DNA of 64,000 nt from assembly GCA_001797365.1 (NCBI GenBank), contig MGPH01000011.1:20402-84401 (forward strand), written 5' to 3'. Under the pieces are notes generated by a model. That model was not told where the DNA came from, ran no database searches, and was given only the letters and a program-made list of their open reading frames with translations. A program made the translations under genes and the position numbers. The first letter of the stretch is position 1. Each line of letters starts with the position of its first letter. The stretch is from Deltaproteobacteria bacterium GWA2_45_12 (lineage in GTDB: Bacteria > UBA10199). Positions 1-64,000 of the stretch are shown in pieces.

Positions 1-40
1 TAATTGGGCCAGAGTAATGGGCGCGGCAAGCGAGCCGCCC

Positions 41-721
41 CTACAATGAATTTAAATAATATTCCGCCAATTTCAAATCATCCGGTGTTGTCACCTTGAT
101 GTTTTTGGGATCGCCTTCGACAACAAACACATCCGTCCCCATCCCTTCAACCATCATGGCTTCATCGGTTGAATTCTGGCCTAGGTCCGGATGGGACTTA
201 TACAATGCCGAAAGGATTCTGCAAGAAAAACCCTGGGGGGTTTGAGTGAGCCTTAATTGATTTCTGGGGATGGTTTTTTTAACCTTGTCCCCATCCATTT
301 CTTTTACAGTGTCACTGATAGGAACCACCGGAACCACAGCCCATTTGACTTTGGTTGCCTCAACAATTTTTTTGATGAGATCTACCGAAACCAAGGGCCT
401 CACGGCATCGTGAACAAGAACAGTATCATCGTCTTGGGAATGTAAAAACTCAAAACCCTTTTTGACGGATTCGGCACGGGTGGCTCCACCGGTGATAAAA
501 ATACATGGGTCGGGAAACCCGACCCCTACGGTAGGGGCGGGGTCGCCCCGCCCTTGGGCAGGCAAACACACCACAATCTTCTCAAACAACCCTGTTTTCA
601 CAAATGCTTCCACCGACCATTGAAAAAGGGGTTTACCTTTTAATTCCAAAAATTGTTTGCGTGTTTGGCCGCCAAAACGGATTCCCAAACCTGCAGCGGG
701 GATGATGGCGTAATTGGACAT
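41..721 (-). CDS. ispD: 2-C-methyl-D-erythritol 4-phosphate cytidylyltransferase
   Basis: 226 aa. N-terminal IIPAAGLGIRFG nucleotide-binding motif and overall collinearity with E. coli IspD (VHDAVRP, TPQ motifs). The stop codon is supplied by the CTAC end of an adjacent REP. Confidence 0.85.
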   Translation of the reverse strand: MSNYAIIPAAGLGIRFGGQTRKQFLELKGKPLFQWSVEAFVKTGLFEKIVVCLPAQGRGDPAPTVGVGFPDPCIFITGGATRAESVKKGFEFLHSQDDDTVLVHDAVRPLVSVDLIKKIVEATKVKWAVVPVVPISDTVKEMDGDKVKKTIPRNQLRLTQTPQGFSCRILSALYKSHPDLGQNSTDEAMMVEGMGTDVFVVEGDPKNIKVTTPDDLKLAEYYLNSL

Positions 722-810
722 TGGTTATGTAGGGGCGAATCTTGCCTGCCCGCCTCTGGAGGGTATTCGCCCTTGTAGGGGCACGTTGAAGGGCGATCAC
801 AAGGATCGCC
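722..810. repeat. REP-type palindromic repeat cluster, family A (GTAGGGGCG...CGCCCCTAC)
   Basis: GTAGGGGCGAATCTTG.../...CAAGGATCGCCCCTAC. Related copies at 19-44, 1399-1490, 2950-3008, 12520-12580, 13560-13600, 14290-14350, 25830-25895, 28290-28320, 30090-30115, 31053-31079, 36590-36665 and 48745-48880. Confidence 0.85.
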
Positions 811-811
811 C

Positions 812-1396
812 CTACCTCAAAAAATTCCTCAAAATATCCTTCCCCACCTTTGTTAAAATGGATTCAGGATGAAACTGCACCCCTTCCACACGGTGCTGCT
901 TGTGGCGCACGGCCATAATTTCCCCTTCCTTGGTGGTGGCAGAAATTTCCAATACATCGGGCATCGATTCCGGACGAATCACCAAAGAATGATATCTCGT
1001 TGCCACAAAGGGATTTTCAATTCCTTCAAAAATGGTTTTATTGTCGTGTTTTATTTGCGACGTTTTTCCATGCATCACGCGCGCGGCACGGACAATTTCC
1101 CCTCCAAAAGCAGCGCCAATGGACTGATGCCCCAAACAAACCCCCAAAATGGGAATCATCCCGGTAAATTCTTTGATGAGCGGCACAGAAATACCCGCTT
1201 CTTTCGGGGTACATGGGCCGGGAGAAATGACGATCCATTTTGGATTCATTCCCCGGATATCAGCCAGAGTACATTCGTCATTTCTGAAAACACGAATCTC
1301 CTTTTCGGGGTTTTGTCCTGCATCCTGTAAAATTTCCCCAAAATACTGGACCAGGTTATAGGTAAACGAATCGTAATTATCGATGATTAATAACAT
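812..1396 (-). CDS. trpG: anthranilate synthase component II / glutamine amidotransferase (TrpG/PabA type)
   Basis: 194 aa class-I GATase. Motifs [21 protein letters not shown] catalytic Cys, HPES. Immediately downstream of trpE. Confidence 0.8.
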
Positions 1397-1445
1397 AATT
1401 GTACGGACGAACCTTGCCTGCCCGCCTCAGGAGGGTGTTCGCCCA

Positions 1446-2945
1446 TCAATATTGGCCCATCACGGGCGAACACAAGGTTCGCCCGTACACGTTTTCTAAA
1501 GCCTTTAAAACCCCCCGGGCCTTGTTCTGGCATTCCTTATACTCCAGGCGCGCATCCGAATTAAAAACAATACCGGCGCCCGCTTGAACATAAACTTTCT
1601 TTCCCTTGAAAAAAGCCGTGCGGATGGCAATGGCCGTGTCGCAATTTCCATTAAACCCGATATACCCAACACATCCCCCATAAACCCCACGACGCAAGCC
1701 CTCAAGCTCTTCGATAATTTCCATGGCCCTTATTTTAGGCGCCCCTGTCAGTGTCCCAGCAGGAAAGGTGGCACGGATAAGATCATAGGCATCCCTGCCT
1801 TTTTTTAGCATTCCTGAGACATGCGAAACCAAGTGCATCACATGCGAATACCGCTCCACAATTTCCAACTCATCCACGGTGACACTGCCTATTTCACACA
1901 CCCGTCCCAAATCATTGCGGCCAAGGTCAACCAGCATGATGTGCTCGGCACGTTCTTTGGGATCTTCTCTTAATTCTTCTTCGAGTTCGAGATCCTCTTT
2001 TTCGGTATATCCACGTCTGCGCGTACCTGCAATGGGCCGGAGTTCGGCTCTTTTTCCTTCAAGACGCACCATCACTTCAGGAGAAGCCCCTACCACGGCC
2101 AGATCATCAAAATGTAAAAAGTAAAGGTAAGGGGAAGGATTTAATCGCCTGAGTACGCGATAAAGTTCAAAAGGATCAATGTCCGTTTTAGCTTCGTACC
2201 TCGTAGACAACACCACCTGGAAAACATCTCCTGCCTTGATATACTCACGCGCTTTTTCAACCATGCCCATGAACTCTTTTTCGGTGTGCCTGACACGCGG
2301 GGTTTCCGGGGTTGTCTTCTTCTTTTTGGAAACAGAAGGGATGGGCTTTCTTAATTGGCGAACGAGGGTTTCAATCTTTACACAGGCTTTTTGATACAAG
2401 CCTTTAACAGAAGTCCCATCAAGATAAATATTCACCACAATTTTGATGGTCTGTTTAAAATTATCAAACATTAAAAGCGTATCTGCGATCACAAAAAAAG
2501 CTTCTTCCACGCCAAGGTCATCTAAACTTGCTTCTTTGATTTTTTCAAATGAACGGACAACATCATAACTCAAAAAACCCACCGCTCCCCCAAAAAAACG
2601 GGGCAAACCGGGAACTTCAACCGGTTTAAAAGGTTTCATCACCTCTTTGACTGCCGATAAGGGATCCCCAGAAATTGTTTGAACCGTCTTTTTCTTCCCC
2701 GATAAAAGAGTCAATTGGTCGTTACGAACCTTAAGAACCATTCGTGGATTAGTTCCCAGAAAACTGTACTGCCCCCATTTTTCTCCCCCTGTGGCACTTT
2801 CAAGCAAAAAATCATATTTTCCGGAACGAATTTTTAAAAAAGCAGACACAGGAGTATCAAGATCGGCCGGGATTTCGGCATACAAAGGGATGAGATTCCC
2901 TTTTTTGGCTAATGTTTGAAATTCTTGGAGTGTAAGAGAAAACAT
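1446..2945 (-). CDS. trpE: anthranilate synthase component I
   Basis: 499 aa chorismate-binding enzyme (LLESA..GG..GRYSF-like, GAGIV). Its last ~15 codons are encoded by a REP element at 1446-1490. Confidence 0.85.
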   Translation of the reverse strand: MFSLTLQEFQTLAKKGNLIPLYAEIPADLDTPVSAFLKIRSGKYDFLLESATGGEKWGQYSFLGTNPRMVLKVRNDQLTLLSGKKKTVQTISGDPLSAVKEVMKPFKPVEVPGLPRFFGGAVGFLSYDVVRSFEKIKEASLDDLGVEEAFFVIADTLLMFDNFKQTIKIVVNIYLDGTSVKGLYQKACVKIETLVRQLRKPIPSVSKKKKTTPETPRVRHTEKEFMGMVEKAREYIKAGDVFQVVLSTRYEAKTDIDPFELYRVLRRLNPSPYLYFLHFDDLAVVGASPEVMVRLEGKRAELRPIAGTRRRGYTEKEDLELEEELREDPKERAEHIMLVDLGRNDLGRVCEIGSVTVDELEIVERYSHVMHLVSHVSGMLKKGRDAYDLIRATFPAGTLTGAPKIRAMEIIEELEGLRRGVYGGCVGYIGFNGNCDTAIAIRTAFFKGKKVYVQAGAGIVFNSDARLEYKECQNKARGVLKALENVYGRTLCSPVMGQY

Positions 2946-3008
2946 AAAACCGTACCCGTACGGGCGAACCTTGCCTGCCCGCCTCAGGAGGGTGTTCGCC
3001 CCTTGTAT

Positions 3009-3947
3009 CTACATCCGTTTCAAATAAAATTCATTCGAGTACTGCACCTTGCCATCAATGGTTTCAAGTTTCCACCGAAATTTGCCGTAGGGAAGAACCA
3101 GCTCTGTGGGGTGCATCCAAACCGTATCAACCCTTTCTTGCATACGCCCCAAAGCTTTCATAGGAAGAGTATATTGGGATTGCACCAAACCCAAATTTTG
3201 CGACAGGCCATTTCTGACAACCAAATCGCCGGAGGGAAACCATTTCCCCCTAAAAAAATGTTCCAGCCCCATTTTTTCCCTCACGGAAATTTGTTCGGGA
3301 TTGGTGACAGTAAGGTTCTGAATCTGCCCATCAAAATAAAATAAATAATCCGTCTTCAAATCAAGGGAACATTCCTTATTAAACTCCCCAATATCAGTTC
3401 GATCCGTAAATTCATTTTCCTGCCAGGTATGCACACGCCCCACATCCACATGCACCATCAAAAGATCAGGATAATACCCTACCCCGCCCCGGCCAAGCCT
3501 GCGGACATAATTCACCAATTTTTTCTCGGTGATTTCATCCATGTGAATATCAGAGGCCATCCCCTTTGTGTGATAACTGTTTTTGGCAACATTACGGCCT
3601 TCCGCCCGAAGAGCCTCGTTAAATTCAGGACGCCGATACCCGCTGATAATTTCAAGCGTATCCACTCCAAAGTGATCTGCTAAATGGTCCAAAAGATGAA
3701 TCAAATCCAGGTTCATTCCTGCCACTTCTGCATTATCACGGGAACGTAAAAACTGGCTGACCCTTTTAACAGCCTCTGGATTGGGGACATGATCTTTCTC
3801 ATAGGCAATTTCTAAGGTTTCGTTTAAATGAAAGTTATAAAGCCTCAAGAACCCATCATGTTTTAATTCTGAAGCCTGAGCACTAAAAGACATGATTAAA
3901 ATCAAGAGGTTAATAAAAATGGCCCGGGTATTGACAATGTGCGTCAT
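3009..3947 (-). CDS. peptidase M15A / DUF882 (YcbK/MepK-like) protein with signal peptide and C-terminal extension
   Basis: SGYRRPEFN...HTKGMASDIHMD zinc-peptidase motifs typical of DUF882. Start placed at Met-8 of the listed ORF (MTHIVN..., a hydrophobic signal-like stretch). Confidence 0.6.
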   Translation of the reverse strand: MTHIVNTRAIFINLLILIMSFSAQASELKHDGFLRLYNFHLNETLEIAYEKDHVPNPEAVKRVSQFLRSRDNAEVAGMNLDLIHLLDHLADHFGVDTLEIISGYRRPEFNEALRAEGRNVAKNSYHTKGMASDIHMDEITEKKLVNYVRRLGRGGVGYYPDLLMVHVDVGRVHTWQENEFTDRTDIGEFNKECSLDLKTDYLFYFDGQIQNLTVTNPEQISVREKMGLEHFFRGKWFPSGDLVVRNGLSQNLGLVQSQYTLPMKALGRMQERVDTVWMHPTELVLPYGKFRWKLETIDGKVQYSNEFYLKRM

Positions 3948-4095
3948 ATCGATTATGAGCCTTACCACTTTCTCAAAGTTTTGACTCTTAAAGTGTGAAA
4001 GTACTCATTTTTGTAGCGCATTAAAATAAAAAAATGCCACTTCTCTATAAACAAAAAGCCCTTTATAATTTAACAATCCTTTCATTTCAATTTAT

Positions 4096-5982
4096 ATGAA
4101 TCCAACTCCTACAAATAAACATTTGGAAGAAAAAGATGAGGTCGTCATTCGTTTATGTGGCGACTCCGGTGACGGTATGCAAATAACCGGCAACCGTTTC
4201 ACTGAAACATCCGCCGTCCTGGGAAACGATTTAGCCACTTTCCCCGACTATCCTGCTGAAATCAGGGCTCCTGCAGGGAGCCTGTTCGGTGTTTCCGGCT
4301 TTCAAATCCACTTTTCCTCCAAAGAAATTCGTACCGCAGGGGATGCCCCCGATGTCTTGGTGGCCATGAATCCCGCCGCCCTCAAAACAAACTTAAAAGA
4401 TCTTAAAAAAAAGGGGATGCTCATCCTTAATTTGAATGCCTTCACTGAAGATAATTTAAAGCTGGCCAATTATTCGTCCAACCCACTCGAAGACGGCAGC
4501 TTGAACGATTACGAACTCTATAAAGTCCCCATGACCTTGCTTACTGAAGAAGCACTTAAAGACTCCGGCCTTACCAAAAAAGACATGGCTCGTTGCAAAA
4601 ATTTCTTTGCCCTGGGGCTTATGTATTGGCTCTATCAACGCCCCTTGGACATCACCCTGGATTGGATTGACAAAAAATTCAAATCAAAACCCGAAATCGT
4701 CGATGCCAATAAAAAAGTTCTGAAAAGTGGTTATTATTTTGGCGAAACCACAGAAATTTTTAAATGTTGCTATAAAGTCTCCAAAGCCAAACTCACTCCA
4801 GGCACTTATCGCAATATCACCGGGAACGAAGCCACAGCTCTTGGGTTTATTGCCGCTTCTCAACTGGCCAACAAACCCCTTATCTATTGTAGTTATCCCA
4901 TTACACCCGCTTCCGATATTTTACATGAACTCTCCCGTCATAAAAATTTTGATATCAAAACATGCCAGGCCGAAGATGAAATTGCCGCCATGGGCATGGC
5001 CTTGGGCGTTGCCTTTGCCGGGGGTTTGGGCCTTACCGGCACAAGTGGCCCGGGGCTTGCCTTAAAAAGTGAAGCCTTAAGTTTGGCCATTATGATGGAA
5101 CTTCCCCTTGTGGTCATTAATGTTCAACGGGGGGGGCCATCAACGGGGCTTCCAACCAAAACCGAACAAGCCGATCTGTTTCAGGCCCTTTATGGAAGAC
5201 ATGGCGAAGCTCCCTTGGCGGTTATTGCACCAGCAACACCGGCCGAATGTTTTAGCTTGGCCATCGAAGCCGTTCGTCTATCCATTCAATACATGACCCC
5301 CGTTATTTTCCTTTCCGATGGCTATCTGGCCAATGGTGCTGAACCCTGGAATATTCCTCCCCTGGCTTCCCTTAATCCCATTGTGATTAAACACCCCACT
5401 CAGGCAGACAAATTTCAACCCTACCTCCGCGAGCCGGAAACCCTCGCACGTCCTTGGGCCATTCCCGGTACTCCCGGCTTGGAACACAGAATCGGCGGCA
5501 TTGAAAAGCAGGATATCACCGGGAATATCAGTTATGATCCTGTCAATCACGAGCACATGGTGCACTTACGTGCCGAAAAAATTGGGCGTATCGCTCAAAG
5601 CATTCCTTTAGCCCAGGTTTTTGGAAAAGAATCCGGTGACGTTCTTGTCATCGGTTGGGGGGGGACCTTTGGGGCCATTACCACCGCAGTGGAAACTCTT
5701 CAAAGAGAGGGCCTATCTATTTCAAGCCTTCATTTGCGCTTTTTAAATCCTTTCCCCGCCAATCTCGGGGATGTTCTCTCAAGGTTTAAAAAAATCATCG
5801 TGGCCGAACTCAATACGGGACAGCTAGCCCAGGTATTACGTGGTCAATTCACCGTTGATATAAAATCACTTACCAAAATTCAGGGAAGACCGTTTAATGT
5901 GAAGGAAGTTGTCGACGGGATTCGTACCATTCTCAACGAAGGAAACAATCAATGGAAACTCAAAAAAGCAGTGTCCAACTAA
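4096..5982 (+). CDS. korA: 2-oxoglutarate/2-oxoacid:ferredoxin oxidoreductase alpha subunit (fused gamma-alpha)
   Basis: 628 aa. N-terminal POR gamma-like domain (CGDSGDGMQ), then pyruvate-flavodoxin oxidoreductase core domains. Followed by a TPP-binding beta subunit. Confidence 0.8.
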   Translation: MNPTPTNKHLEEKDEVVIRLCGDSGDGMQITGNRFTETSAVLGNDLATFPDYPAEIRAPAGSLFGVSGFQIHFSSKEIRTAGDAPDVLVAMNPAALKTNLKDLKKKGMLILNLNAFTEDNLKLANYSSNPLEDGSLNDYELYKVPMTLLTEEALKDSGLTKKDMARCKNFFALGLMYWLYQRPLDITLDWIDKKFKSKPEIVDANKKVLKSGYYFGETTEIFKCCYKVSKAKLTPGTYRNITGNEATALGFIAASQLANKPLIYCSYPITPASDILHELSRHKNFDIKTCQAEDEIAAMGMALGVAFAGGLGLTGTSGPGLALKSEALSLAIMMELPLVVINVQRGGPSTGLPTKTEQADLFQALYGRHGEAPLAVIAPATPAECFSLAIEAVRLSIQYMTPVIFLSDGYLANGAEPWNIPPLASLNPIVIKHPTQADKFQPYLREPETLARPWAIPGTPGLEHRIGGIEKQDITGNISYDPVNHEHMVHLRAEKIGRIAQSIPLAQVFGKESGDVLVIGWGGTFGAITTAVETLQREGLSISSLHLRFLNPFPANLGDVLSRFKKIIVAELNTGQLAQVLRGQFTVDIKSLTKIQGRPFNVKEVVDGIRTILNEGNNQWKLKKAVSN

Positions 5983-6974
5983 CCAAAAAAGATTTCACCT
6001 CTGATCAGGATGTGCGTTGGTGCCCCGGTTGCGGTGACTATGCCATCTTGGCTTTCATGCAACGCGTTCTACCAACCTTGGGTATTCCTCGCGAAAAGTT
6101 TGTGTTTGTTTCAGGCATTGGTTGTTCCAGCCGCTTTCCATATTATATGAACACCTATGGCATGCACACCATTCATGGTCGTGCCCCTGCCATTGCCACA
6201 GGCATCAAGGTGGCCAACCCCGATCTGCAGGTGTGGGTTGTCACAGGGGATGGGGATGGCCTTTCCATTGGTGGAAACCACCTCATTCATGCGCTCCGTC
6301 GGAATGTAGACTTGAAAATTCTCTTGTTTAACAACCGCATTTATGGGCTGACCAAAGGGCAATATTCCCCCACCTCCGAGCAGGGGAAAAAGACAAAGTC
6401 GACTCCCCATGGGTCGGTGGACTATCCCTTAAATCCCCTTTCCATTGCTTTGGCTTCAGAAGCCACTTTTGTTGCCCGTTCGGTTGATTCCAATGCAAAA
6501 CACTTAACTGAAGTTTTAACACGCATGGCCCATCACAAAGGAAGTGCGTTTGTTGAAATTCTTCAAAACTGTATTGTTTTTAATGATGGCGCTTTTGACG
6601 ATGCCACAAACCCTGAAGTCCGCGATGACAATGTCTTGATCCTTAAACACGGCAACCCAATGATCTTTGGAAAAACCAAAAACAAGGGCATCAAACAAAA
6701 TGGGATGAATTTGGAAGTGGTCACCCTTGGTGAAAACGGCATTACCGAAAAAGATCTTGTCGTGCATGATGAATTTTTACCCACTTCCTCGTTGGCCTAT
6801 GTTCTTGCCCAAATGGAAAGACCCACCGCCCCCATCCCCATGGGGATATTCCGGTCCATCCAAAAACCCACTTACGAGACAATGATCCATCAACAAGTCG
6901 AACGGGCCCATTCAAAAGGAAAGGGAAACCTGGAAAAACTTATCCATGGTGAAAATACGTGGGTGGTGAATTGA
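5952..6974 (+). CDS. korB: 2-oxoglutarate:ferredoxin oxidoreductase beta subunit (TPP-binding)
   Basis: 340 aa with WCPGCGDY and GDGD..IGGNH TPP-binding motifs. Overlaps korA by 31 nt, suggesting translational coupling. Confidence 0.8.
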   Translation: METQKSSVQLTKKDFTSDQDVRWCPGCGDYAILAFMQRVLPTLGIPREKFVFVSGIGCSSRFPYYMNTYGMHTIHGRAPAIATGIKVANPDLQVWVVTGDGDGLSIGGNHLIHALRRNVDLKILLFNNRIYGLTKGQYSPTSEQGKKTKSTPHGSVDYPLNPLSIALASEATFVARSVDSNAKHLTEVLTRMAHHKGSAFVEILQNCIVFNDGAFDDATNPEVRDDNVLILKHGNPMIFGKTKNKGIKQNGMNLEVVTLGENGITEKDLVVHDEFLPTSSLAYVLAQMERPTAPIPMGIFRSIQKPTYETMIHQQVERAHSKGKGNLEKLIHGENTWVVN

Positions 6975-7067
6975 TGGTCAAACTGTTCAAATACTTAATA
7001 ACCCTGATTGAACAAAAAATCAGGCGTCATAAAACACGCAGGGCCCATTTAAACTTGTATGGCAAAT

Positions 7068-7238
7068 TCAAGATGTCCGACTTTGATCCTTCCGCTTTTT
7101 GATCTCTCTGGATTTAAATTCGATGCATGCGTCCCATTCTACTCGAATGGGGGAAGTTATGTCCCCAACGATGGCTTTCTTTCGAAGTTCTTTAAGCCTT
7201 TTCTGGATATTTTTCTTTTTAGGTTGGTTTACTTTCAT
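7068..7238 (-). CDS. candidate small basic protein (56 aa, MKVNQPKKKNIQKRLKELRKK...), not in ORF track because <60 aa
   Basis: Read by eye on the minus strand of the korB-tyrS spacer. Lys/Arg-rich. No recognisable family. Confidence 0.2.
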   Translation of the reverse strand: MKVNQPKKKNIQKRLKELRKKAIVGDITSPIRVEWDACIEFKSREIKKRKDQSRTS

Positions 7239-7360
7239 GGTTCGATGTTTCCTACTACACCGTCATTCCCGCGAAAGCGGGAATCCACATTGCTCAAAGA
7301 ATGGATTCCCGCTAACTGAACCCCGCATGGCGGGGTCACGTGGCGGGAATGACAAACGGG

Positions 7361-8566
7361 TCATTTAAAAAAAACCCTCTTAAACTTCCTCTTCCCCACC
7401 TGCAAAAGATACTCGCCCTTGCATTCAAGCTTCATCATGGGATCGGAAATTTTCTTTTCGTTGACTGACACCCCCCCTTGGGTGACAAGGCGTCGCGCTT
7501 CGCTATTGCTTGGGGTAAGAGAAAGTTCCGTCAAAAGAGTCTGAAGCCCCCTGGGCTCAGAAGAGACGGGCAGAGTCACCTCTTCGATATCCGAAGGCAA
7601 CCCGTGCTTAGAAAAAACCTTGGCAAATTCCTCTTCCGCTTTATCAGCTTCGGACCGGCTATGAAAACGGGCCACGATCTCTTTGGCCAAATCGGTTTTT
7701 ACTTTTTTTGGATGAAGCCCCCCACTGGTTACAGCCTGTTTCATTCCCTGTATTTCCTGCAAAGACTTTGAGCTAAGCAACTCATAATAGCACCACATCA
7801 GATCATCGGTGATGGACATGACCTTGCCAAAAATATCTTTCGGCGATTCTTTGATGCCGATGTAATTGTTGTAGGACTTGCTCATCTTTTGCACACCGTC
7901 AGTGCCTACAAGAAGCGGCATGGTCAAAACGATTTGCGGGGATTGGCCGGATCTTTTCTGAATGGTACGGCCCATGAGAAGGTTAAATTTTTGGTCCGTC
8001 CCTCCCAATTCTACATCTGCCTTGAGTACCACCGAGTCATGGGCTTGAAAGAGCGGATAGTAAAATTCGAGAATGGAGATATCATGCCCCGCCTTGAATC
8101 TTTTTTTGAAATCATCCCGTTCCAGCATGCGAGCCACCGTTTGTTTGGAACCAAGCATGGTCAATTCCATGGAAGACATTTTGTCAAACCATTCACTGTT
8201 GAAACGCACCTCGGTTTTGGCCCGATCAAGAATCTTAAAAACCTGATCTTGATACGTTTTAGAATTCTTCTGAACTTCCTCTTTCGACAATCCGGGCCTT
8301 GTTTCAGAACGCCCCGTCGGATCCCCAATGGTTGCCGTAAAATCACCGATCAGAAAAACAACCTGATGCCCCAGCTCCTGAAATTGCCGCAGTTTATGCA
8401 AAAGCACCGTATGCCCCAAATGCAAATCGGGCGCTGTTGGATCAAAGCCCGCTTTTACACGCAAGGGCTTCCCCAGTTTAAGCTTTTCGATAAGCCCTTC
8501 TTCTTCAATAAGCTCAACGACTCCCCGTTTAATAACCTCTAATTGTTTTTCAACAGAAATGGACAT
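7361..8566 (-). CDS. tyrS: tyrosyl-tRNA synthetase
   Basis: Class I aaRS with HLGH and KMSKS motifs and a C-terminal S4-like domain. Start placed at MSISVEK (Met-8 of the listed ORF). Confidence 0.85.
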
Positions 8567-8766
8567 AATTTCTCTCCCAATATTCATCCCCCTTTTCCGC
8601 CGAAGGACGGATCAGTCCTTTGGCTGAAAAAAAGGGGGACAAAGGGGGATTTGTTCCCGTGCGTGCTTGCCTTCGAACCTTTAAATATAAACCGGAAACG
8701 GAGATGGGCCCAAATCCCCCCTACCCCCCTTTTTTAAAGGGGGAATGCATCCTCTAAAAAGCCTCT

Positions 8767-9318
8767 TCAAAAAACATATTCCTTCTTTTCAGTCATCACA
8801 TATTGCAATCGGCAATCCCACAAATCAATGGGGATGCTTGGGATCATTTGAAATTCATAAGCCAGGCCCATGGTGGCCCCTGTAAATGAAGTCAAAAAAC
8901 GGTCATAAAAACCCCGGCCATAACCCAGACGAAATCCTTGCGAACTAAACCCGATACCGGGAATGATCACCAAATCCAAACGGGTATTGGGAGGCAAAGT
9001 CACACAACCATGTTTGGGTTCCAAAACCCCCCACGCTCCTTTTTGTAAATCAGCAGGGTCATTAACTTCATAATATTGAACTCCTTGTTCCACACGGGGG
9101 AAATAGACATTTTTGGCTTCTTCCAGCGCCTTGGTAAACAGGAAACGCGTTTCGACCTCATTTTTAACAGGAGAATAAAGCCCCACGCGCTGGGCCTTTT
9201 TCCACAAGGGAAGCAATACAATTTTTTCCTGGATAGTCAAACTGAGGCTGTGAACCCGCTCAAGGCTTAAGGCCAGTCTTTCTTCGAGAATTTTCTTCCT
9301 GAGTTGGTCTTTGGTCAT
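8767..9318 (-). CDS. ygfA: 5-formyltetrahydrofolate cyclo-ligase
   Basis: 183 aa with MTHFS motif GYGRGFYDRFL. Classical position downstream of ssrS and zapA. Confidence 0.75.
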   Translation of the reverse strand: MTKDQLRKKILEERLALSLERVHSLSLTIQEKIVLLPLWKKAQRVGLYSPVKNEVETRFLFTKALEEAKNVYFPRVEQGVQYYEVNDPADLQKGAWGVLEPKHGCVTLPPNTRLDLVIIPGIGFSSQGFRLGYGRGFYDRFLTSFTGATMGLAYEFQMIPSIPIDLWDCRLQYVMTEKKEYVF

Positions 9319-9329
9319 GTCCTACTAGT

Positions 9330-9520
9330 GGCTAGAAAAAACCCCACCATAAGTCGTGAGAAGCTTATCTTGAACCTTAACTAATTAAGGTGGAACCCGT
9401 TATTACCTCTTTAGGCTTCCTCACAAGGAGGCATGCTCACCAAGGTAAGAGATGGACCCCGTTTTGTCATTGTAAGTTCAAAAAATAATGACGTTCACCA
9501 CGAACCAGGCAGGGTTTGTT
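9330..9520 (-). ncRNA. ssrS: putative 6S RNA (ssrS)
   Basis: ~190-nt non-coding gap between zapA stop (9527) and ygfA start (9318) on the same strand. This is the conserved zapA-ssrS-ygfA synteny. On the minus strand the gap ends in GGTGGGGTTTTTT. Secondary structure not verified. Confidence 0.45.
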
Positions 9521-9526
9521 AAAATT

Positions 9527-9814
9527 TTACCTCAACGAAGTTTCCACACGTCGAATCAAATCATCAATCGTCAAAGCCCACTGATTTAAATTATCAGCCT
9601 GTTTTTCTTTAAGACTGACAAAATCATCAGCAATATTTAAGGCAGCCAGAATGGCAACATTGGCTGTTGAGATAGCCTTGTTCTGAGAAACAATCTCATG
9701 CATTTTTCTGTTTACATAATCAGAAACCTTTTTCACATGCTTTTCAGTGGCTTCACTTTTGATGTTAAACTTTTGATTCAAAATGGTTAGATCGTAGGAT
9801 TTTTTTTCTGTCAT
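9527..9814 (-). CDS. zapA: cell division protein ZapA
   Basis: 95 aa from MTEKKSYDLTILNQKFNIKSEA (typical ZapA N-terminus), with a coiled-coil C-terminus. Synteny with ssrS/ygfA. Confidence 0.7.
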   Translation of the reverse strand: MTEKKSYDLTILNQKFNIKSEATEKHVKKVSDYVNRKMHEIVSQNKAISTANVAILAALNIADDFVSLKEKQADNLNQWALTIDDLIRRVETSLR

Positions 9815-9950
9815 GGGGAAATTCCTATAATTTTGCTTGTCCTTCAAGTCAAGAAAAATCACCAAAAATTAGGATGTTAACCAAAAAGCCTCAATTGGAA
9901 CATGACATTATTTTATTAATGTCAATTATCCAACTATCTCCAAATAAGAA

Positions 9951-10643
9951 CTAATCTTTTTCAATCAAGCGCCATCCACGCAAGGGAATCCCCGCTAATG
10001 CATAGGGGCCAAAGTGAGTGCAAATAATTGTTTTGGTGGTCAACCCCACTTTTTCACACATGCGTCTTATCTGGCGTTGGCGTGATTCAATCATGCTCCA
10101 CTCAAACCATGTTGAAAGGGGATTTTCTTGGGCAAATTTTATGGAAACAGGTTGGGTCCTGCGACCATCCAATTCAAACCCTTGTTGTAAGCGGGCAAGC
10201 TGGCGATCATTGGGTTTAGGAGTCACTTTCACATCAAAAACCCTTCTTATCTCCGCTTGGGGATTTTGATATTTTGCAACAAGGCTTGCATCATTGGTTA
10301 AAACCACCAACCCCTCGGCATCATAATCAAGCCTTCCCAGCGGCTTAAAAGAGGCAAATTTTTTGGGCAAAAAATCGTAAACAGCTGAGCGTTCAAGTTC
10401 ATCATTTGAAGACACCACACATTTTTTGGGTTTATGAAAAAGAATGATTTGGACTGTTTGGTGAAGATTGAGTTTTTCTCCTTTGACAGAAATCTTGGCT
10501 GTGGAGGAATCCACTTTTGTCCCGAGCACGGTTACTTTTTTACCGTTTACAAATACATGCCCCTGCTTCATCAGCATTTCGGCTTCACGACGAGAATACA
10601 GCCCTGTTTGACCAATCAGTTTTTGAAGACGTTCAAGAGGCAT
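9951..10643 (-). CDS. S4-domain rRNA pseudouridine synthase (RsuA/RluB family)
   Basis: S4 domain followed by the PLGRLDYDAEGLVVLTND catalytic Asp motif. The listed N-terminal extension is encoded by a REP, so the start is placed at MPLERLQ. Confidence 0.75.
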   Translation of the reverse strand: MPLERLQKLIGQTGLYSRREAEMLMKQGHVFVNGKKVTVLGTKVDSSTAKISVKGEKLNLHQTVQIILFHKPKKCVVSSNDELERSAVYDFLPKKFASFKPLGRLDYDAEGLVVLTNDASLVAKYQNPQAEIRRVFDVKVTPKPNDRQLARLQQGFELDGRRTQPVSIKFAQENPLSTWFEWSMIESRQRQIRRMCEKVGLTTKTIICTHFGPYALAGIPLRGWRLIEKD

Positions 10644-10710
10644 GAAAATAGTAAGATGGTTCGACCACCGCATAGCGGGGTCCCGTTTACGGGACGGGGC
10701 TCATGTCCAT

Positions 10711-10738
10711 GTAAGGGCAATTCATGAATTGCCCTTAC
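10711..10738. repeat. REP family B: perfect 28-bp palindrome GTAAGGGCAATTCATGAATTGCCCTTAC
   Basis: Identical or near-identical copies at 14697-14724, 37419-37446, 39707-39748 (1.5 copies), 57553-57580, and variant 32400-32427. All sit in short spacers between genes. Confidence 0.9.
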
Positions 10739-10757
10739 AAAAATAGGACACCCTGAG

Positions 10758-11624
10758 CTAAGTCGAAGGGTCACTCTCATCTTCAACAAAGATATCTTTT
10801 TCCAGATCACGGATGCTTTTGATGGAAGATTCAAGTTCATCAATAAGGGCACTTGATTCCAAATCAAGAGCTTCCATAGCCGTACTTTCGGCCGTAAAAT
10901 CATCTTCTATAGGAACCGATTTTTCTTCGGAAGAAGCTTGGGGCTCTATCGTTTCCAAATCTTTAAGTGTAGGCAAATCCGAGAGCGATTTAAGGCTGAA
11001 AATTTCCAAGAATGTTTTGGTGGTTCCATACATGATGGGCTTACCCAGTTCTTCACTGCGGCCCACAATGCGCACCAGATCACGATCGAGCAATGTCTTG
11101 ATCACACCGCCACTGTCGACGCCTCGAATCTCTTCAATCTTTTGGCGGGTGGCAGGTTGTTGGTAGGCCACAATGGCTAAAGTTTCCATGCTGGGATTGG
11201 ACAAGCGGGCTTTGGGAATCTTTTGGAGATTCTTTAAAAAAGAACCCACATGAGCCTTGGTACGAAATTGGAAACCTCCTGCCACTTCCACCAACTCAAA
11301 ACCACGATCGGCAGACATTTGGTATTCGCAGCTAAGCTCACTTAACGCATCCTTGATATCCCCAAGGGAAACTTCCATTTCCATCTGGCTTTGCGCTTCT
11401 TTTAACTGCGCCAAAGGATCCGCTTCTTCCCTTTCTTCCGCATTTTGTTCAATCCCTTCGGCCTCGGGGATTGCTTCACCAGAAGCCTTCTCCACGGAAT
11501 CTTCAATTTTTGCTGTTTCTTTGGGTTCTGTTTTAAGTAATTTTCTTAAATCAGAAGTCGAAAGAGGTTCCGGCGAGACAAAAAGAAGGGCTTCAATAAT
11601 TGATTTGATTTGGGTTTTTTCCAT
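10758..11624 (-). CDS. scpB: segregation and condensation protein B
   Basis: IEALLFVSPEPL winged-helix motif with an acidic C-terminal tail. Adjacent to scpA. Confidence 0.8.
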   Translation of the reverse strand: MEKTQIKSIIEALLFVSPEPLSTSDLRKLLKTEPKETAKIEDSVEKASGEAIPEAEGIEQNAEEREEADPLAQLKEAQSQMEMEVSLGDIKDALSELSCEYQMSADRGFELVEVAGGFQFRTKAHVGSFLKNLQKIPKARLSNPSMETLAIVAYQQPATRQKIEEIRGVDSGGVIKTLLDRDLVRIVGRSEELGKPIMYGTTKTFLEIFSLKSLSDLPTLKDLETIEPQASSEEKSVPIEDDFTAESTAMEALDLESSALIDELESSIKSIRDLEKDIFVEDESDPST

Positions 11625-11736
11625 AAATTATTTACTAAAGTCATGGTTCGACCACCGCGTAGCGGGGTCCCGTTTGCGGGACGGGGCTCACCATGTCCAT
11701 TATTTTTTAATGGACACCCTGAGCATAGTCGAAGGG

Positions 11737-12510: not shown

Positions 12511-12572
12511 GTGTTGGTATGGGCGAATCTTGTATTCGCCCCTATACATCAGGGCGATCACGAGGATCGCCC

Positions 12573-13568: not shown

Positions 13569-13591
13569 GGGGGGCGCGCCAAGGGGCGCCC

Positions 13592-14242
13592 CTACAGCAA
13601 TATTCTCGCAACCATCTGCAAAGGAACGCCCACTAAAATACGGTAAAATCCCGTAAAAAACAACATCAACAAAATGAGAGTCCCATACTGACCCACAAAC
13701 GCATCAAACTTGGAAGCCCAAGGTTGGGGAAGCAATCCAAACATGACTTTGCCCCCGTCTAAAGGATGAATGGGAATCAAATTAAAAAAGAGCAATGCCA
13801 GGTTCAGATAAAAAATCTGGACAATGGCTCCGATAATGGTGAACCCGTTATAGTTTAATGGCAGCATCCATTCAGGCTTAAGAAAAGCAATGACATGTAA
13901 GACTCCTGCCAAGATCAGAGCCAACAAAAAATTGCTCAAAGGCCCCGCGGCGGCGATAAAAAGGCCGTCTTTTTTCCAATTTTTAAGGTTTCGATAGTCA
14001 ACCGGAACCGGCTTCCCCCATCCGATGATAAATCCGCCAAGAAAAAATCCCAAAGCCGGCAACACAACGGTGCCCAAAATATCAATATGGGGCAAGGGAT
14101 TTAAGGTAACGCGCCCCATGGCTTTGGCTGTGTTGTCTCCAAACTTGGAAGCCACCCATCCATGAGCCGCTTCATGAAAGCTGAGCGAAAAAAGAAACCC
14201 AGGAAAAAACAGGATAAAACTGATTAATTTTGATGTTTCCAT
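13592..14242 (-). CDS. peptidase M50 (site-2 protease family) membrane protein
   Basis: HEAAHGW (HExxH) within a polytopic hydrophobic protein. 216 aa. Confidence 0.65.
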   Translation of the reverse strand: METSKLISFILFFPGFLFSLSFHEAAHGWVASKFGDNTAKAMGRVTLNPLPHIDILGTVVLPALGFFLGGFIIGWGKPVPVDYRNLKNWKKDGLFIAAAGPLSNFLLALILAGVLHVIAFLKPEWMLPLNYNGFTIIGAIVQIFYLNLALLFFNLIPIHPLDGGKVMFGLLPQPWASKFDAFVGQYGTLILLMLFFTGFYRILVGVPLQMVARILL

Positions 14243-14357
14243 TTAAAGAAACGAAACGCTAACAAATGGGGTTTGTCTAGGCAATGGGATTATTGATTGG
14301 TCGTTCCGTAGGGGCGCCCCTTGGTGCGCCCTATCTACGCGTTAGCCAGCGGCATCC

Positions 14358-14681: not shown

Positions 14682-14720
14682 GACGGACCTGTCCCGGTAA
14701 GGGCAATTCATGAATTGCCC

Positions 14721-47561: not shown

Positions 47562-47623
47562 AGGTGTTCAATGTAGGGGCAGGTCTATGACCTGCCCGAA
47601 TTATGAGCGGTATAAACCCGCCC

Positions 47624-54142: not shown

Positions 54143-54781
54143 ATGCCCGACAATAAGATAATTGTGGAATCCCGAAGGCTTATATTGGCCTCGGCTTCGC
54201 CCCGCCGCAGCCAGCTTTTGGCAGAGGCTGGTTTCACCTTTGAAATCATCCCTTCAACCATAGATGAAAAATGGGACCCAAAGCTTTCACCAGAAGAGAA
54301 TGTGAAGAAAATCGCGCTGGAGAAGGCAACGGATGTGGCAAGAAAAACCCCTCGACCCTTCGATCACCGCGTAGCGGTGGTCGAACCATCTACCCTTATC
54401 TTAGCTGCCGACACCATCGTCGTTTTGGGAACTCGCATCCTCGAGAAACCCAGAGACAAAGCTGAAGCCAGCCAGTTTCTCAAACTGCTTTCAGGCCGGA
54501 CCCACAGCGTTTTAACAGGGTACACAATACTGGAAGGTTCTGGTACAATAGCGGCACATGGCGTGGAAGAATCCAAAGTGAGTTTTAAAATTTTAAATGA
54601 TGATCAAATAGGAAAATACATTCAAACCGGCGAGCCCATGGACAAGGCTGGGGCGTACGCGGCACAAGGCATCGGCAGCCAATTCATCGAAAAAATTGAA
54701 GGGTCTTTAAGTAATGTGATTGGGTTACCGATGGAAGTAGTGGCACCTATTTTGAAAACAGTTATGAGTTATGAGTTATGA
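54143..54781 (+). CDS. maf: Maf-like nucleoside triphosphate pyrophosphatase
   Basis: ILASASPRRSQLL N-terminal motif. 212 aa. The C-terminus MSYEL is encoded by a heptamer tandem repeat. Confidence 0.8.
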   Translation: MPDNKIIVESRRLILASASPRRSQLLAEAGFTFEIIPSTIDEKWDPKLSPEENVKKIALEKATDVARKTPRPFDHRVAVVEPSTLILAADTIVVLGTRILEKPRDKAEASQFLKLLSGRTHSVLTGYTILEGSGTIAAHGVEESKVSFKILNDDQIGKYIQTGEPMDKAGAYAAQGIGSQFIEKIEGSLSNVIGLPMEVVAPILKTVMSYEL

Positions 54782-54795
54782 GTTATGAGTTATGA
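54761..54795. repeat. tandem heptanucleotide repeat (GTTATGA)x5 spanning maf stop and next-gene start
   Basis: Five perfect direct copies read directly from the sequence. Encodes MSYEL-*-MSYEN across the gene junction. Confidence 0.9.
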
Positions 54796-57515: not shown

Positions 57516-57618
57516 GGAAAAATTTGATGGTTTGACCAAGGCTCATCTCCATGTAAGGGCAATTCATGAATTGCCCTTACAAAAAGGACATACTTAAGCC
57601 AGGTCGAAGGTACCTTTT

Positions 57619-61581: not shown

Positions 61582-61632
61582 CAAATAATCGTGGTAAAAA
61601 TTTCCTGAACTTGATGCCACCGCCTTAACAAA

Positions 61633-63228
61633 TCAAACAACCGGTCCCGCTTTACGGATTTCTTCTGCCACTCCATCAGCGTATTGCTTGAAATTATCGT
61701 GGAACAACTGGGCCAAATGCTTGGCTTTGGCATCATAGGCCGCTTTGTCAGCCCATGTGTTTTTTGGATTTAAAATAGTGGGAGAAGAAATGCCCGGACA
61801 TTGGCTAGGCACTTCCAACCCGAAGAAGGGATCTTTCTGGAAGGAAACTTCCATAAGCTGCCCACTTAAGGCTGCCTTAATGATGGCGCGGGAATCGGCG
61901 ATGGACACGCGTTTGCCGACGCCATAAGGGCCGCCGCTCCAACCTGTATTGACCAACCAGCAATTGACTTTGTGCTTGGCAATTTTTTCACCCAATAATT
62001 TTGCATAGACTCCCGGATGAAGCGCCATGAAAGGGCCTCCAAAACAGGGGCTAAAGGTGGCCTGGGGTTCTTTAATGCCGCGTTCTGTCCCGGCCACTTT
62101 GGCCGTGTATCCTGAAAGAAAATGATACATGGCTTGCGCTGAAGTCAGGCGAGCTACAGGGGGAAGTACGCCAAAGGCATCACAGGTGAGCATGATCACA
62201 TTTTTAGGGTGCCCGCCGGTTCCACTTTCAACCGTGTTCGGAATGAAACCGATGGGATAAGAAGCCCGTGTATTTTCAGTGAGGGCCTCACTATCAAGAT
62301 CAATCTTGCGTGTGGCTTGGTCAAAGACAACGTTTTCGAGCACGGTGCCAAAACGCTGCGTGGTCGCATAAATTTCGGGTTCAGCGGATTTTGATAATTT
62401 GATCACCTTGGCATAACAACCGCCTTCAAAATTAAACACCCCATTGTCGCTCCATCCATGCTCGTCATCTCCGATCAGATTACGTTCGGGGTCGGCTGAC
62501 AAGGTTGTTTTCCCTGTGCCGGACAAACCAAAGAACACGGCGGCATCGCCACGAGGGCCAATATTGGCCGAGCAATGCATGGACATCACCCCTTTTTGGG
62601 GAAGCAAATAATTCAAAAGAGTGAAAATGGATTTTTTGGTTTCACCCGCATAATTGGTTCCCCCAATCAAAATGATTTTTTTGCCAAAATTGGGAAGGAT
62701 AAAAGCCTCGGAATTGGTGCCATCAACGGCTGGATCGGCCTTAAAATTGGGAACATTGATGAGAATATATTCCGGCTTGTGATTTTTGAGTTGGTCTTTG
62801 TCTTTTATAGGCACAAACATGTTTTGTGCAAAAAGACTGTGCCAGGCAAATTCAGTGATGACACGGATGGGCACACGAAACTGGGGGTCACAACCGGCAT
62901 AGCAGTCTTGAACAAAAACATCTTTCCCCTGCAGATACTGTAAAACCTTGGCATAAAGGGCATCAAATTGGGCAGGCTCGATGGATTTATTGACCTTCCC
63001 CCACCACACTTTGGAGGAGGGTTCTTTAACGATGAATTTGTCGTTGGGGGAACGTCCGGTGTATTTTCCGGTATGAACAATGAAAGGGCCATCAGCAGCA
63101 ATAAAGCCTTCGTTACGGCACACAGCTTCTTCATAAAGCCTGGGGGCGCTTAAATCCCAGTAAATCTTCCGGGTCCCTTTGATCCCATTATCTTCAAGAG
63201 AGAACTTTTTAGCTTGGTCTGTAGACAT
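61633..63228 (-). CDS. pckA: phosphoenolpyruvate carboxykinase (ATP)
   Basis: 531 aa. GLSGTGKTTLS kinase-1a motif and overall PckA collinearity. Confidence 0.9.
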   Translation of the reverse strand: MSTDQAKKFSLEDNGIKGTRKIYWDLSAPRLYEEAVCRNEGFIAADGPFIVHTGKYTGRSPNDKFIVKEPSSKVWWGKVNKSIEPAQFDALYAKVLQYLQGKDVFVQDCYAGCDPQFRVPIRVITEFAWHSLFAQNMFVPIKDKDQLKNHKPEYILINVPNFKADPAVDGTNSEAFILPNFGKKIILIGGTNYAGETKKSIFTLLNYLLPQKGVMSMHCSANIGPRGDAAVFFGLSGTGKTTLSADPERNLIGDDEHGWSDNGVFNFEGGCYAKVIKLSKSAEPEIYATTQRFGTVLENVVFDQATRKIDLDSEALTENTRASYPIGFIPNTVESGTGGHPKNVIMLTCDAFGVLPPVARLTSAQAMYHFLSGYTAKVAGTERGIKEPQATFSPCFGGPFMALHPGVYAKLLGEKIAKHKVNCWLVNTGWSGGPYGVGKRVSIADSRAIIKAALSGQLMEVSFQKDPFFGLEVPSQCPGISSPTILNPKNTWADKAAYDAKAKHLAQLFHDNFKQYADGVAEEIRKAGPVV

Positions 63229-63579
63229 GATGAAAACTCCTTATGAAATAATTTGAATTTAAAATAACCAACCCCTTTTACATTTAAAAGGGGCCCTTTT
63301 AAAATCAGCTAGCATGGCCAAAATCGCTTGAAAAGTGGTTTTTTAGACCTTTTCCAACTCGTTTCTTTACATGCTCCCATTAAAATTACTGGAAAATTAA
63401 AGATGGGTTCTATAAACAATGGGACTGATAGTTACAGGGAATAATTTTCATACCAAAAACTTAATAAGCGCCCGCGACTAAGCCCGGGTACCTGGTACTC
63501 CAGGTGGGCGATGAAGTGGTTCCAAGCCGAGAGGCGCAAACCATAGCGATAGCGGAGGGCAACCAAAAAAATTTAATAG

Positions 63580-63656
63580 GCGCCCGTAGCTCATTTGGAT
63601 AGAGCATCGCCCTTCTAAGGCGAGGGTAGCAGGTTCGAGTCCTGCCGGGCGCACCA
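63580..63656 (+). tRNA. tRNA-Arg (anticodon TCT), CCA encoded
   Basis: Manual cloverleaf: acceptor GCGCCCG/CGGGCGC, D-arm GCTC..GAGC, anticodon stem TCGCC/GGCGA with loop CTTCTAA (TCT), T-arm GCAGG-TTCGAGT-CCTGC, then discriminator A plus CCA. Confidence 0.8.
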
Positions 63657-64000
63657 ATTGGACGAAGAGGCCATTTCGGAGAGAATCCGGAATGGCTTTT
63701 TCATTTCATATCGCACACTTGGTGCGTCAAAAACTCGGTTCGAAAGTATCTTTTCTAGGAAGTCTCGCTTCTCCTCTGCAGTACGAGACATCCATAATGT
63801 TTTCGCGCTTGTAGCCAGTTCTAAAACTTTTTTCGCAGTAGTGAGATAAGCGCCATCAATGTCCCTTTGTGCTTGTGCCATGAGGAGAGTAAACCGTTCT
63901 CTCTCTTCCCGAATGCGTTGAATCTGGCGCTTGTAACCTTCCACATCAAGTAATTCATTGCGATGGTCGTCGTAAATTCGGTCTTCTGCATTTTCGAGAG
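63615..64000 (-). CDS. C-terminal part of a putative large serine recombinase (gene continues beyond window)
   Basis: In-frame read from the window edge. The coiled-coil region and W..RTAEEKRDFLEKILSNRVF-DAPSVRYEMKKPF resemble the conserved C-terminal tail of large serine recombinases. The last 14 codons overlap the 3' end of tRNA-Arg. Confidence 0.4.
   Translation of the reverse strand, partial: LENAEDRIYDDHRNELLDVEGYKRQIQRIREERERFTLLMAQAQRDIDGAYLTTAKKVLELATSAKTLWMSRTAEEKRDFLEKILSNRVFDAPSVRYEMKKPFRILSEMASSSNWCARQDSNLLPSP

Follow-up and report, generated by a model that had tools for sequence, protein, structure and literature searches.

GTAG-footed hairpin repeats in a 64-kb window of an uncultured groundwater bacterium and their likeness to the REPs of TnpA-REP subclass 2.4

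A 64,000-nt stretch of DNA (hereafter, the window; 45% G+C) from an uncultured groundwater bacterium, Deltaproteobacteria bacterium GWA2_45_12, contains many short palindromes with GTAG-type ends, which raises the question of what kind of repeat these are and how they came to lie where they do. The initial annotation had described them as repetitive extragenic palindromic sequences (REPs) in at least five families, of the type mobilized by REP-associated tyrosine transposases (RAYTs), and had predicted a RAYT gene elsewhere in the genome. The analysis presented here indicates that the palindromes are very probably GTAG-footed REPs such as accompany TnpA-REP subclass 2.4 (Quentin, Siguier, Chandler & Fichant 2018, PMC6006769), the equivalent of RAYT Group 4 (Bertels et al. 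2017, PMC5581495).

Abundance, anatomy and placement of the repeats

The REP head GTAVGGRC occurs 53 times in the window versus 5.0 ± 2.6 times expected (largest shuffle, 14), and the shorter GTAGG occurs 83 times versus 47.6 ± 6.7 times in shuffles. A generic census of perfect hairpins with 4-nt feet yielded 237 hairpins swamped by chance ones, with GTAG ranking second to TTTT, and was replaced by the head-motif census plus curation. In total, 36 REP units were curated from repeat finders and a head-plus-hairpin scan; they fall into at least seven families, in line with the five or more originally proposed, and their foot is GTAG or GTAA in 30 units and GTAC or GTAT in six.

Family B is a 28-nt palindrome with a foot at either end, or double foot, GTAAGGGCAATTCATGAATTGCCCTTAC. 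Its description as a perfect palindrome present six times stands in part: four copies are identical and perfect (10711, 37419, 39707, and 57553), and the further forms are a perfect variant with two compensated pairs (32400), a one-sided hybrid (14697), and a half copy (39735-39748). Approximately 11 distinct copies of this family were counted in the ~300 kb of DNA from this organism that was inspected, ~230 kb of which was recovered by a metagenome scan with the family D pattern. Family D, GTAGGGACAATCCTAGGATTGTCCCTAC, is represented by two identical copies and one compensated variant. The long REPs are R1 (GTAGGGGCGATCCTTGTGATCGCCC), R2 (GTAGGGGCGCCGCTTGCCGCGCCC, with two copies identical to the base), R6 (GTAGGGGCAGGTCTATGACCTGCCC), R7 (GGGCGGGG..CCCCGCCC), and the 44-nt R5, which has a long loop; one odd double-foot unit lies outside the named families. 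In predicted single-strand folds, the foot is unpaired in R1, R2, R5, and R6, with a stem of 8-9 bp above the GTAG foot in R1 and R6, and is paired with CTAC in families B and D, giving a full 12-bp stem; fold z-scores for B, D, R1, and R6 range from -5 to -6.7. Inverted pairs of the REPIN type (REP doublets forming hairpins) are found at 12517-12576, 25830-25899, 36587-36665, and 47573-47627, and the R2 pair at 25830-25899 folds at -36 kcal/mol (z -9.4). Clusters resembling bacterial interspersed mosaic elements (BIMEs) occupy 28158-28548 and 48769-48873. Copies lie 2-18 kb apart, are palindromic, and mix families, which is not the layout of an array of clustered regularly interspaced short palindromic repeats (CRISPR). 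At the gathering threshold, Rfam gave only a 6S RNA and a tRNA in the window and no match to the REPs or to the longer repeat family E described below, and matches at lower thresholds were noise.

These features have close counterparts in subclass 2.4, for which "long" REPs of 24-25 nt with three G-C pairs at the stem base have been described, together with "double-foot" REPs combining GT[AG]G and C[TC]AC (PMC6006769). Table S1 of that study lists GTAGGGGCAATTCATGAATTGCCCCTAC, flagged as double foot, from Chlorobium chlorochromatii (ABB27827.1); between this consensus and family B, the sole difference is one compensated pair, which supports the original assignment to the RAYT type. The same table holds many 25-nt REPs styled like R1 and R6; families D, R1, R2, and R6 themselves are not in it. 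The window repeats have a GT[AG]G foot and a hairpin, are numerous, lie downstream of genes, and include inverted pairs, all of which match published REP traits; thus, every feature is published REP behavior.

The repeats are neither confined to the window nor specific to one assembly. RpsB, LeuRS, and PEPCK encoded in the window are identical to OGP10390.1, OGP10393.1, and OGP10407.1 of GWA2_45_12 and to HBF11791.1, HBF11794.1, and HBF11810.1 of a second metagenome-assembled genome (MAG), GCA_003501025.1, and the window DNA is also present in JGI, ENA, and Logan assemblies; therefore, the repeats are no artefact of a single assembly. Head density is 0.83 per kb in the window and 0.57-0.78 per kb in other contigs of the organism, as expected if the repeats extend beyond this region. 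Among these, the Ga0154362 and Ga0209211 contigs, mutually 99.9-100% identical, share families B, R1, E, and F and their G+C content with the window.

Positions were compared with gene starts corrected from Pfam matches and sister-contig gene calls. Spacers make up 11.7% of the window and hold 30 of the 36 units. REPs had been reported in almost every intergenic spacer; in fact, only 17 of 44 spacers of at least 10 nt are occupied. The occupied spacers are tandem ones (17/36), with none among the divergent (0/5) or the convergent (0/3, few and short), which fits the idea that REPs lie preferentially 3' of genes. Ten of the 21 TAG stop codons read GTAGGGGC, and a clear hairpin follows in eight of the ten, so the REP foot supplies the stop codon. 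Three units are located inside genes (R1 in truA, R7 in ispD, and R1 in trpE), and the truA insert is absent from E. coli TruA. Two open reading frames (ORFs) are inflated by spacers filled with REPs: that of leuB, in which 129 residues precede the Pfam domain and cover five units clustered over 408 nt, and a 117-aa ORF at 14358-14711, for which no family match was obtained. For annotation, this means that about one gene in five in the window ends in a REP foot, that starts are inflated for several ORFs, namely leuB, tsf, and the 117-aa one, and that truA and ispD contain in-frame REP peptides.

Within the rpsB-to-rseP gene string, where REPs had been noted at first sight, they occupy the rpsB/tsf, frr/uppS, and uppS/cdsA junctions, with spacers of 75-112 nt holding B or R2 units. 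In three relatives compared (Frr identity to the window, 62-69%), the frr/uppS and uppS/cdsA junctions measure -4 to +4 nt, and the rpsB/tsf junction measures 12 nt in the one relative sampled. Judged from these junctions, the REP-bearing state at all three sites appears to be derived and is absent from the relatives. One relative (GCA_016183175.1, contig L198; Frr 62% identical; 55% G+C) carries an inverted pair of exactly the two R1 variants of the window at 5225-5282, located at tsf/pyrH, where the window has no hairpin REP; therefore, REP position is unconserved and REP sequence is conserved.

RAYT genes and the same 28-mers in other organisms

As originally stated, the window itself contains no RAYT: a family hidden Markov model (HMM) built from 120 members found none among all six-frame ORF pieces of at least 40 aa. 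The prediction of a RAYT elsewhere in the genome was borne out by a 154-aa ORF (contig L149, 2021-2485, minus strand) identical to OGP09663.1 of GWA2_45_12 and HBF12553.1 of GCA_003501025.1, though it is truncated at its N-terminus. Its neighbors are OGP09664.1/HBF12555.1 and OGP09684.1/HBF12554.1, and its presence in two independent binnings assigns it to the genome from which the window comes. Against Pfam Y1_Tnp (PF01797; cut-off, 23), the ORF scores 33.0 bits, matching only profile positions 64-121, and relatives of it are named "REP element-mobilizing transposase RayT" by JGI. Its motifs, VIMPNHVHGII ... WQRNYYEHIIRNE ... REYIENNP (PNHVH, WQ, and YIENNP, with the W-motif segment VWQRNYYEHIIRNE), conform to the HuH, WQ, and Tyr pattern of subclass 2.4 and Group 4, NH[IFV]H, WQ, and YIxNNP (Table 1 of PMC6006769). 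An R6-type REP (GTAGGGGCGGGTCTGTGACCCGCCC) lies just 5' of this ORF, and the stretch from its HUH motif to its Tyr motif contains two REP types (GTAGGGGCGGGTTTACAACCCGCCC and ...GGGCAGGTCACAGACCTGCCCCTAC); the REP types at and inside the gene recur as a pair at 47573-47627 of the window. With respect to the expected flanking by cognate REPs, REPs are present 5' of the gene and in its interior and absent 3' of it, and families B, D, R1, R2, and R5 have no RAYT in the ~300 kb inspected.

A second RAYT from the same sample (contig L166) was considered as a candidate for this organism and not attributed to it, being absent from both NCBI MAGs. It is intact (186 aa), holds an internal double-foot REP (GTAGGGGCGCGCGGCCGCGCGCCCCTAC), and has a family D palindrome 33 nt downstream. 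Direct repeats of ~60 nt (...ATGTGAAGTTGATTGCCGTAAAAAATAAATTTT) bracket it at 2060-2140 and 2820-2880, an arrangement that could reflect insertion or duplication of the cassette as a whole.

The 28-mers of the window were also sought in other organisms. One pattern covering families B and D (42 bits), with ~0.1 chance matches expected over 596 Gb of a genome collection, matched at least 120 loci from more than 20 phylum-level groups, with unrelated flanks. The groups among the matches listed include cultured cyanobacteria, Chloroflexota, Planctomycetota, Patescibacteria, Omnitrophota, Acidobacteriota, Spirochaetota, and Firmicutes, and the commonest 28-mers among them are GTAGGGGCAATTCATGAATTGCCCCTAC (68 times), its GCGATT...AATCGC variant (20 times), and the family B sequence of the window (eight times outside the species). 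At five of the 120 genome loci listed, a RAYT contains the palindrome or lies at most 172 nt from it.

Linkage to RAYT genes was also seen in the metagenome scan with the family D pattern, which returned 65 loci, 17 of them with a RAYT; in 14 of these 17, the palindrome is located inside the RAYT ORF, between the HUH and Tyr motifs. Family D was accordingly rejected as a lineage-specific probe, as it mostly matched RAYT genes of other organisms. Inside RAYT ORFs, the palindrome is read in two frames, as VGT[TI]LGLSL or RDNPR[VI]VPT, and carriage of a double-foot REP was also observed in 16 RAYTs of other organisms. The D-carrying RAYTs form a clade at only 40-58% amino acid identity, from loci of 37-65% G+C, and are distinct from the RAYTs linked to B-like palindromes (31-45% identity). 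While these enzymes have drifted that far, the 28-mer remains identical at 27 or more of its 28 bases; therefore, the DNA element is far better conserved than the enzyme.

Viral contigs contain the same sequences. In IMG/VR, 28 stretches hold the 28-mers, and all of these stretches lack a RAYT. One of them (UViG_3300029959_001594, 402-11595) carries nine double-foot REPs between phage structural genes at 1.75 heads per kb, without a RAYT; PHROGs assigned major head, neck, tape-measure, tail-assembly, and tail proteins to this 14.8-kb module.

A tentative proposal, which we regard as rather doubtful, is that the double-foot 28-mers are pan-bacterial REP "alleles" instead of lineage-specific ones, each 28-mer type having its own subclass 2.4 RAYT clade. 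The two frames in the same RAYT loop suggest that REPs land repeatedly in the gene of the enzyme itself, or that this gene is a safe harbor taking the REP along on transfer, and phages with many REP copies could be one vehicle of spread. If the proposal is correct, the RAYT-REP recognition code of subclass 2.4 would be unusually frozen, and the system would spread horizontally as a gene-plus-seed package, whereas the REPIN-RAYT pairs of Pseudomonas and E. coli are inherited vertically. That 28-mers are nearly invariant across phyla and occur in a phage has a bearing on whether RAYT-REP systems are domesticated and vertical or still travelling between genomes. Some REP families are known to be shared by distant organisms (Di Nocera, De Gregorio & Rocco 2013, PMC3733652), and a literature search on the 28-mers and their peptide translations found no paper stating cross-phylum invariance outright.

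Individual units and neighboring features

Several single long REPs lie towards the left end of the window. An imperfect R2-like REP (19-44, minus strand) supplies the TAG stop codon of ispD with its foot, and an R7 REP inside the same gene (531-553, plus) reads in frame as GRGDPAPT. Next come a 44-nt long-loop R5 REP (729-772, plus) and the 775-815 pair of a partial head (775-790) and an R1 REP (791-815, minus), bounded by GTAGGGGC...GCCCCTAC, in which TAG is the stop codon of the GATase gene at 812-1396. Two further R5 REPs are located at 1401-1444 (plus, GTAC foot) and 2958-3001 (plus), and an R1 REP with a GTAC foot (1464-1488, minus) lies within the last 24 codons of trpE. Downstream, R1 forms the inverted pair at 12517-12576 (12517-12541, plus, GTAT foot; 12552-12576, minus), which provides the trpS stop codon, and the truA unit (25271-25295, minus), which adds an in-frame 10-aa insert, GEPCVRPYST. 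The cluster at 48769-48873 comprises an R1 unit (plus), a partial R1 duplicate, a double-foot unit, GTAGGGACACGGCATGCCGTGCCTCTAC, and a second R1 unit (minus).

Single R2 REPs are located at 13572-13595 (minus; TAG is the stop codon of an M50 peptidase gene), 14308-14331 (plus), 30096-30119 (minus; TAG ends the gene at 30116-30943), and 31056-31079 (minus), the last abutting a family E copy. The REPIN-like inverted R2 pair at 25830-25899 has a 22-nt spacer between the curated units and supplies the asd stop codon, and the R2-like pair at 36587-36665, between uppS and cdsA, supplies that of uppS. The remaining inverted pair, at 47573-47627, joins R6 to a degenerate GGGCGGGTTTA-type unit, both being the types found at or inside the genome's RAYT gene.

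Among double-foot units, family B palindromes lie at 10711-10738 and 57553-57580, at 37419-37446 between frr and uppS, and, with the extra half copy, at 39707-39748 between rpsB and tsf. The hybrid, GTAAGGGC...GCCCCTAC, spans 14697-14724, its TAG ending the TPR gene at 14721-15917, and the doubly compensated variant (GCGGTT...AACCGC) spans 32400-32427. One family D palindrome (14452-14479) is located in the 478-nt spacer that contains the 117-aa ORF without a Pfam match. Another (28158-28185) opens the BIME-like cluster in the 408-nt leuA-leuB spacer, followed by an R7 double-foot palindrome, GTACGGGCGGGGTAACCCCGCCCCTAC (28207-28233), an R2 double-foot unit with GTAG...CCAC (28289-28316), and the family D variant with one compensated pair, AAC CCTAGG GTT (28521-28548). 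At the leuB stop codon itself, TAG belongs to a 13-nt mini double-foot palindrome, GTAGGGCCCCTAC (27056-27068), which may be a collapsed REP.

Two longer repeat families accompany the REPs. Family E (~105 nt) has three copies ~95% alike (23562-23679, plus; 35653-35770, plus; 30950-31050, minus) and a further copy on another contig of the organism (L154); it holds two perfect small hairpins, CCAGGGCAAGCCCTGG and CTCCGCCTAAGGCGGAG, ends in ...GCGTAGGGGAT, and folds weakly (z -2.3). The cdsA-dxr spacer is filled by one copy, and a different one, as noted above, abuts an R2 REP. Family F, a long composite hairpin around CACCGCGTAGCGGGGTCCCGTTTGCGGGAC, lies at 10656-10757, 11643-11724, and 57516-57600, with related cores at 26932-26978, 26999-27045, and 54362-54390 and one core fragment inside a Maf-like ORF. 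A family B palindrome occupies the apical loop of two of the three full copies, those at 10711-10738 and, in the second family F-like hairpin, 57553-57580, and the third has a plain TTATTTTTTAA loop. The three do not make a clean empty-site/filled-site pair for family B, and this idea was rejected, as the loops differ beyond the insertion.

In the UBA MAG (GCA_003501025.1), 220, 190, and 61 nt seemed to be missing, a reading rejected because the apparent deletions are NN scaffold gaps. These gaps fall exactly where REPs or family E copies lie (L002, ~2806; L128, ~7382 and ~8256), look like deletions, and truncate gene calls, with ispD called at 153 aa and a 606-aa fusion ORF appearing. REPs break short-read assemblies at the gap sites of this MAG.

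Other features of the window and its surroundings were recorded. A 6S RNA gene (Rfam RF00013, 95 bits; 9337-9518, minus) lies downstream of a ZapA-like gene and upstream of a 5-formyltetrahydrofolate cyclo-ligase gene. A tRNA gene lies at the window edge (63580-63653, plus), and after it, past the right end (L129 and L130, 1-7850), comes a phage-like or integrative block with YqaJ exonuclease, S24 repressor, replication-organizer-like, and IstB-like genes, plus a large serine recombinase in one assembly. Two stretches of ~385 nt (20667-21051 and 22762-23146; 79% identical), in the large ORF at 20518-22599 and downstream of it, have the look of domains repeated within a surface protein rather than of mobile repeats. 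A long inverted repeat of ~95 nt without a GTAG foot, GTCATTCCCGCGAAAGCGGGAATCC ... GGCGGGAATGAC, is located at 7262-7360 in the convergent spacer after 2-oxoacid:ferredoxin oxidoreductase genes, and a Thermodesulfovibrionia locus (L010) has a motif like it beside the palindrome. Tandem heptamers, (A/G)GTTATG, in 3-4 copies directly precede two start codons, one per strand (32298-32330 and 54762-54784), and related low-complexity runs are present at 31745-31800.

Mechanism, alternative explanations and known systems

Work on E. coli TnpA-REP and on IS200/IS605 provides a mechanism that may apply here. An HUH/Tyr (Y1) enzyme would bind a REP folded as a hairpin in single-stranded DNA, for instance in the lagging-strand template, read its GTAG foot, and cut and rejoin single strands, so that REPs would be copied or moved in trans. 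Copies would be kept where harm is small: just past stop codons, between co-directional genes, and in protein surface loops. A RAYT may have moved the copies in the window in this way, and one might still be active in the genome.

Several observations count against the identification proposed here. The RAYT gene of the genome scores 59.8 bits against NCBIfam REP_Tyr_transpos (NF047646), below the 80-bit RAYT equivalog cut-off, and covers family HMM positions 48-192 of 224, lacking ~45 N-terminal positions that include the N-terminal strand. No RAYT for families B and D (the commonest), R1, R2, or R5 was found in the ~300 kb inspected, and RAYTs with a family D palindrome were seen in other organisms only. 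Finally, no REP insertion polymorphism was seen between assemblies of the species, which are essentially identical (99.9-100%). No intact RAYT of this genome was therefore found in the DNA inspected, and OGP09663.1/HBF12553.1 is probably a dead, inactive copy.

The same facts lend themselves to the alternative that survives best, a fossil population, in which RAYTs spread the REPs in the past, the enzymes are now lost or dead, and the copies persist vertically, perhaps with some use to the host. This is a possible account, albeit an unlikely one. It draws on the truncated state of the sole RAYT gene recovered, which is riddled with REPs, on the lack of polymorphism among assemblies, and on the genomes that retain REPs after loss of tnpA-REP (Quentin et al., PMC6006769). 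However, copies identical to the base (four of B, two of D, and two of R2) argue for recent copying or homogenization, and intact RAYTs may lie outside the ~300 kb of the genome inspected.

Much less probable is that the hairpins evolved in the host as regulatory elements (terminators, stabilizers of mRNA 3' ends, or devices for translation coupling), arising in place and independently of a transposase. REPs of E. coli are reported to affect mRNA decay and translation, and the downstream location in co-directional strings and the stop-codon overlap in 10 cases are what such a function would predict. Yet 24-28-mers of identical sequence turn up at unrelated sites, within coding regions (truA and ispD), and across more than 20 phylum-level groups; relatives lack them at the corresponding junctions, and elsewhere they are tightly linked to RAYT genes. 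Nor do they resemble intrinsic terminators, which combine a hairpin with a T-run: most REPs lack the T-run, and terminator-like sites show no enrichment in 25001-45000 (40 versus 32.6 ± 5.6 expected). The terminator scan did not call families B, D, and R1, and the two units that it did call, R7 at 28211 and R2 at 30096, have a chance flanking T. A secondary regulatory role of the REPs may still be compatible with the data.

Miniature inverted-repeat transposable elements (MITEs) moved by a DDE transposase are more improbable again. An IS66-family transposase gene and a DUF772 gene lie ~6 kb past the left end of the window, and some units form inverted pairs. The units, however, are 24-28 nt long, lack target-site duplications, and share a GTAG foot rather than terminal repeats specific to an insertion sequence (IS), and it is Y1 rather than DDE genes that they adjoin or occupy in other genomes. 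DNA uptake sequences, or a different short over-represented signature, are the least credible explanation: the head GTAGGGGC reaches ~0.8 per kb and, much like the uptake sequences of Neisseria, is frequently found downstream of genes as an inverted pair, but conservation extends over the entire hairpin, several discrete families exist, the linkage is to RAYT genes, and the same sequences span phyla without a known common uptake system.

With identification as subclass 2.4-type REPs retained, the relation to known systems can be specified. From IS200/IS605 (TnpA Y1), the putative enzyme would differ little in fold, chemistry, and recognition of a subterminal hairpin in single-stranded DNA. In contrast to the IS, whose transposase gene is bounded by hairpin ends of its own and travels with them as one unit, the hairpins here are dispersed alone at ~0.6 per kb, and the gene is rare. 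The REPs and BIMEs of E. coli (TnpA-REP subclass 2.2) and the REPINs of Pseudomonas (Group 3) share with the window the GTAG foot and hairpin, inverted pairs, an HUH/Tyr enzyme acting on single-stranded DNA in trans, and a location just past stop codons. They differ in belonging to other RAYT subclasses and in having bulged or short stems, lack a double-foot form and REPs inside the RAYT gene, unlike the type found here, and are largely gammaproteobacterial and regarded as vertically inherited.

The GTAG REP super-family also matches the window. GTAG REPs have been described in eight phyla, with several families per genome, each with its own REPtron, and occur as dimers and clusters, between unidirectional genes, with the TAG of the foot as a stop codon, and in frame within genes (PMC3733652). 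The window shows the same coexisting families, head-to-head and tail-to-tail dimers, clusters, tandem-gene spacers, TAG stops, and in-frame REPs. Consequently, the coexistence of multiple families, which had been considered unusual, is not; only the density appears high for the RAYT group concerned. That survey covered ~80 cultured species, and its supplementary lists do not include the sequences of the window.

The closest match of all is subclass 2.4, the likeness extending from the one-pair difference between GTAGGGGCAATTCATGAATTGCCCCTAC and family B to the GT[AG]G foot, long REPs whose stems rest on three G-C pairs, the 28-nt double-foot REPs, and the protein motifs. It also extends to a wide, patchy taxonomic spread, the known hosts being Cyanobacteria, Bacteroidetes, and scattered other phyla (PMC6006769). 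Differences lie in the truncated RAYT, in the host, an uncultured "Deltaproteobacteria" MAG outside those surveys, and in copy density (family B alone reaches ~11 copies in ~300 kb), which looks much higher than in Group 4, where the commonest flanking 16-mer has only ~14 occurrences (Bertels et al. 2017, PMC5581495). For the window itself, this is of little consequence, as its repeats are a textbook case of a described system, and abundance is the sole respect in which the genome stands out. It does point to a host rich in REPs for a RAYT group to which few repeats have been attributed, and the organism could be a good natural system in which to ask whether subclass 2.4 enzymes move double-foot REPs.

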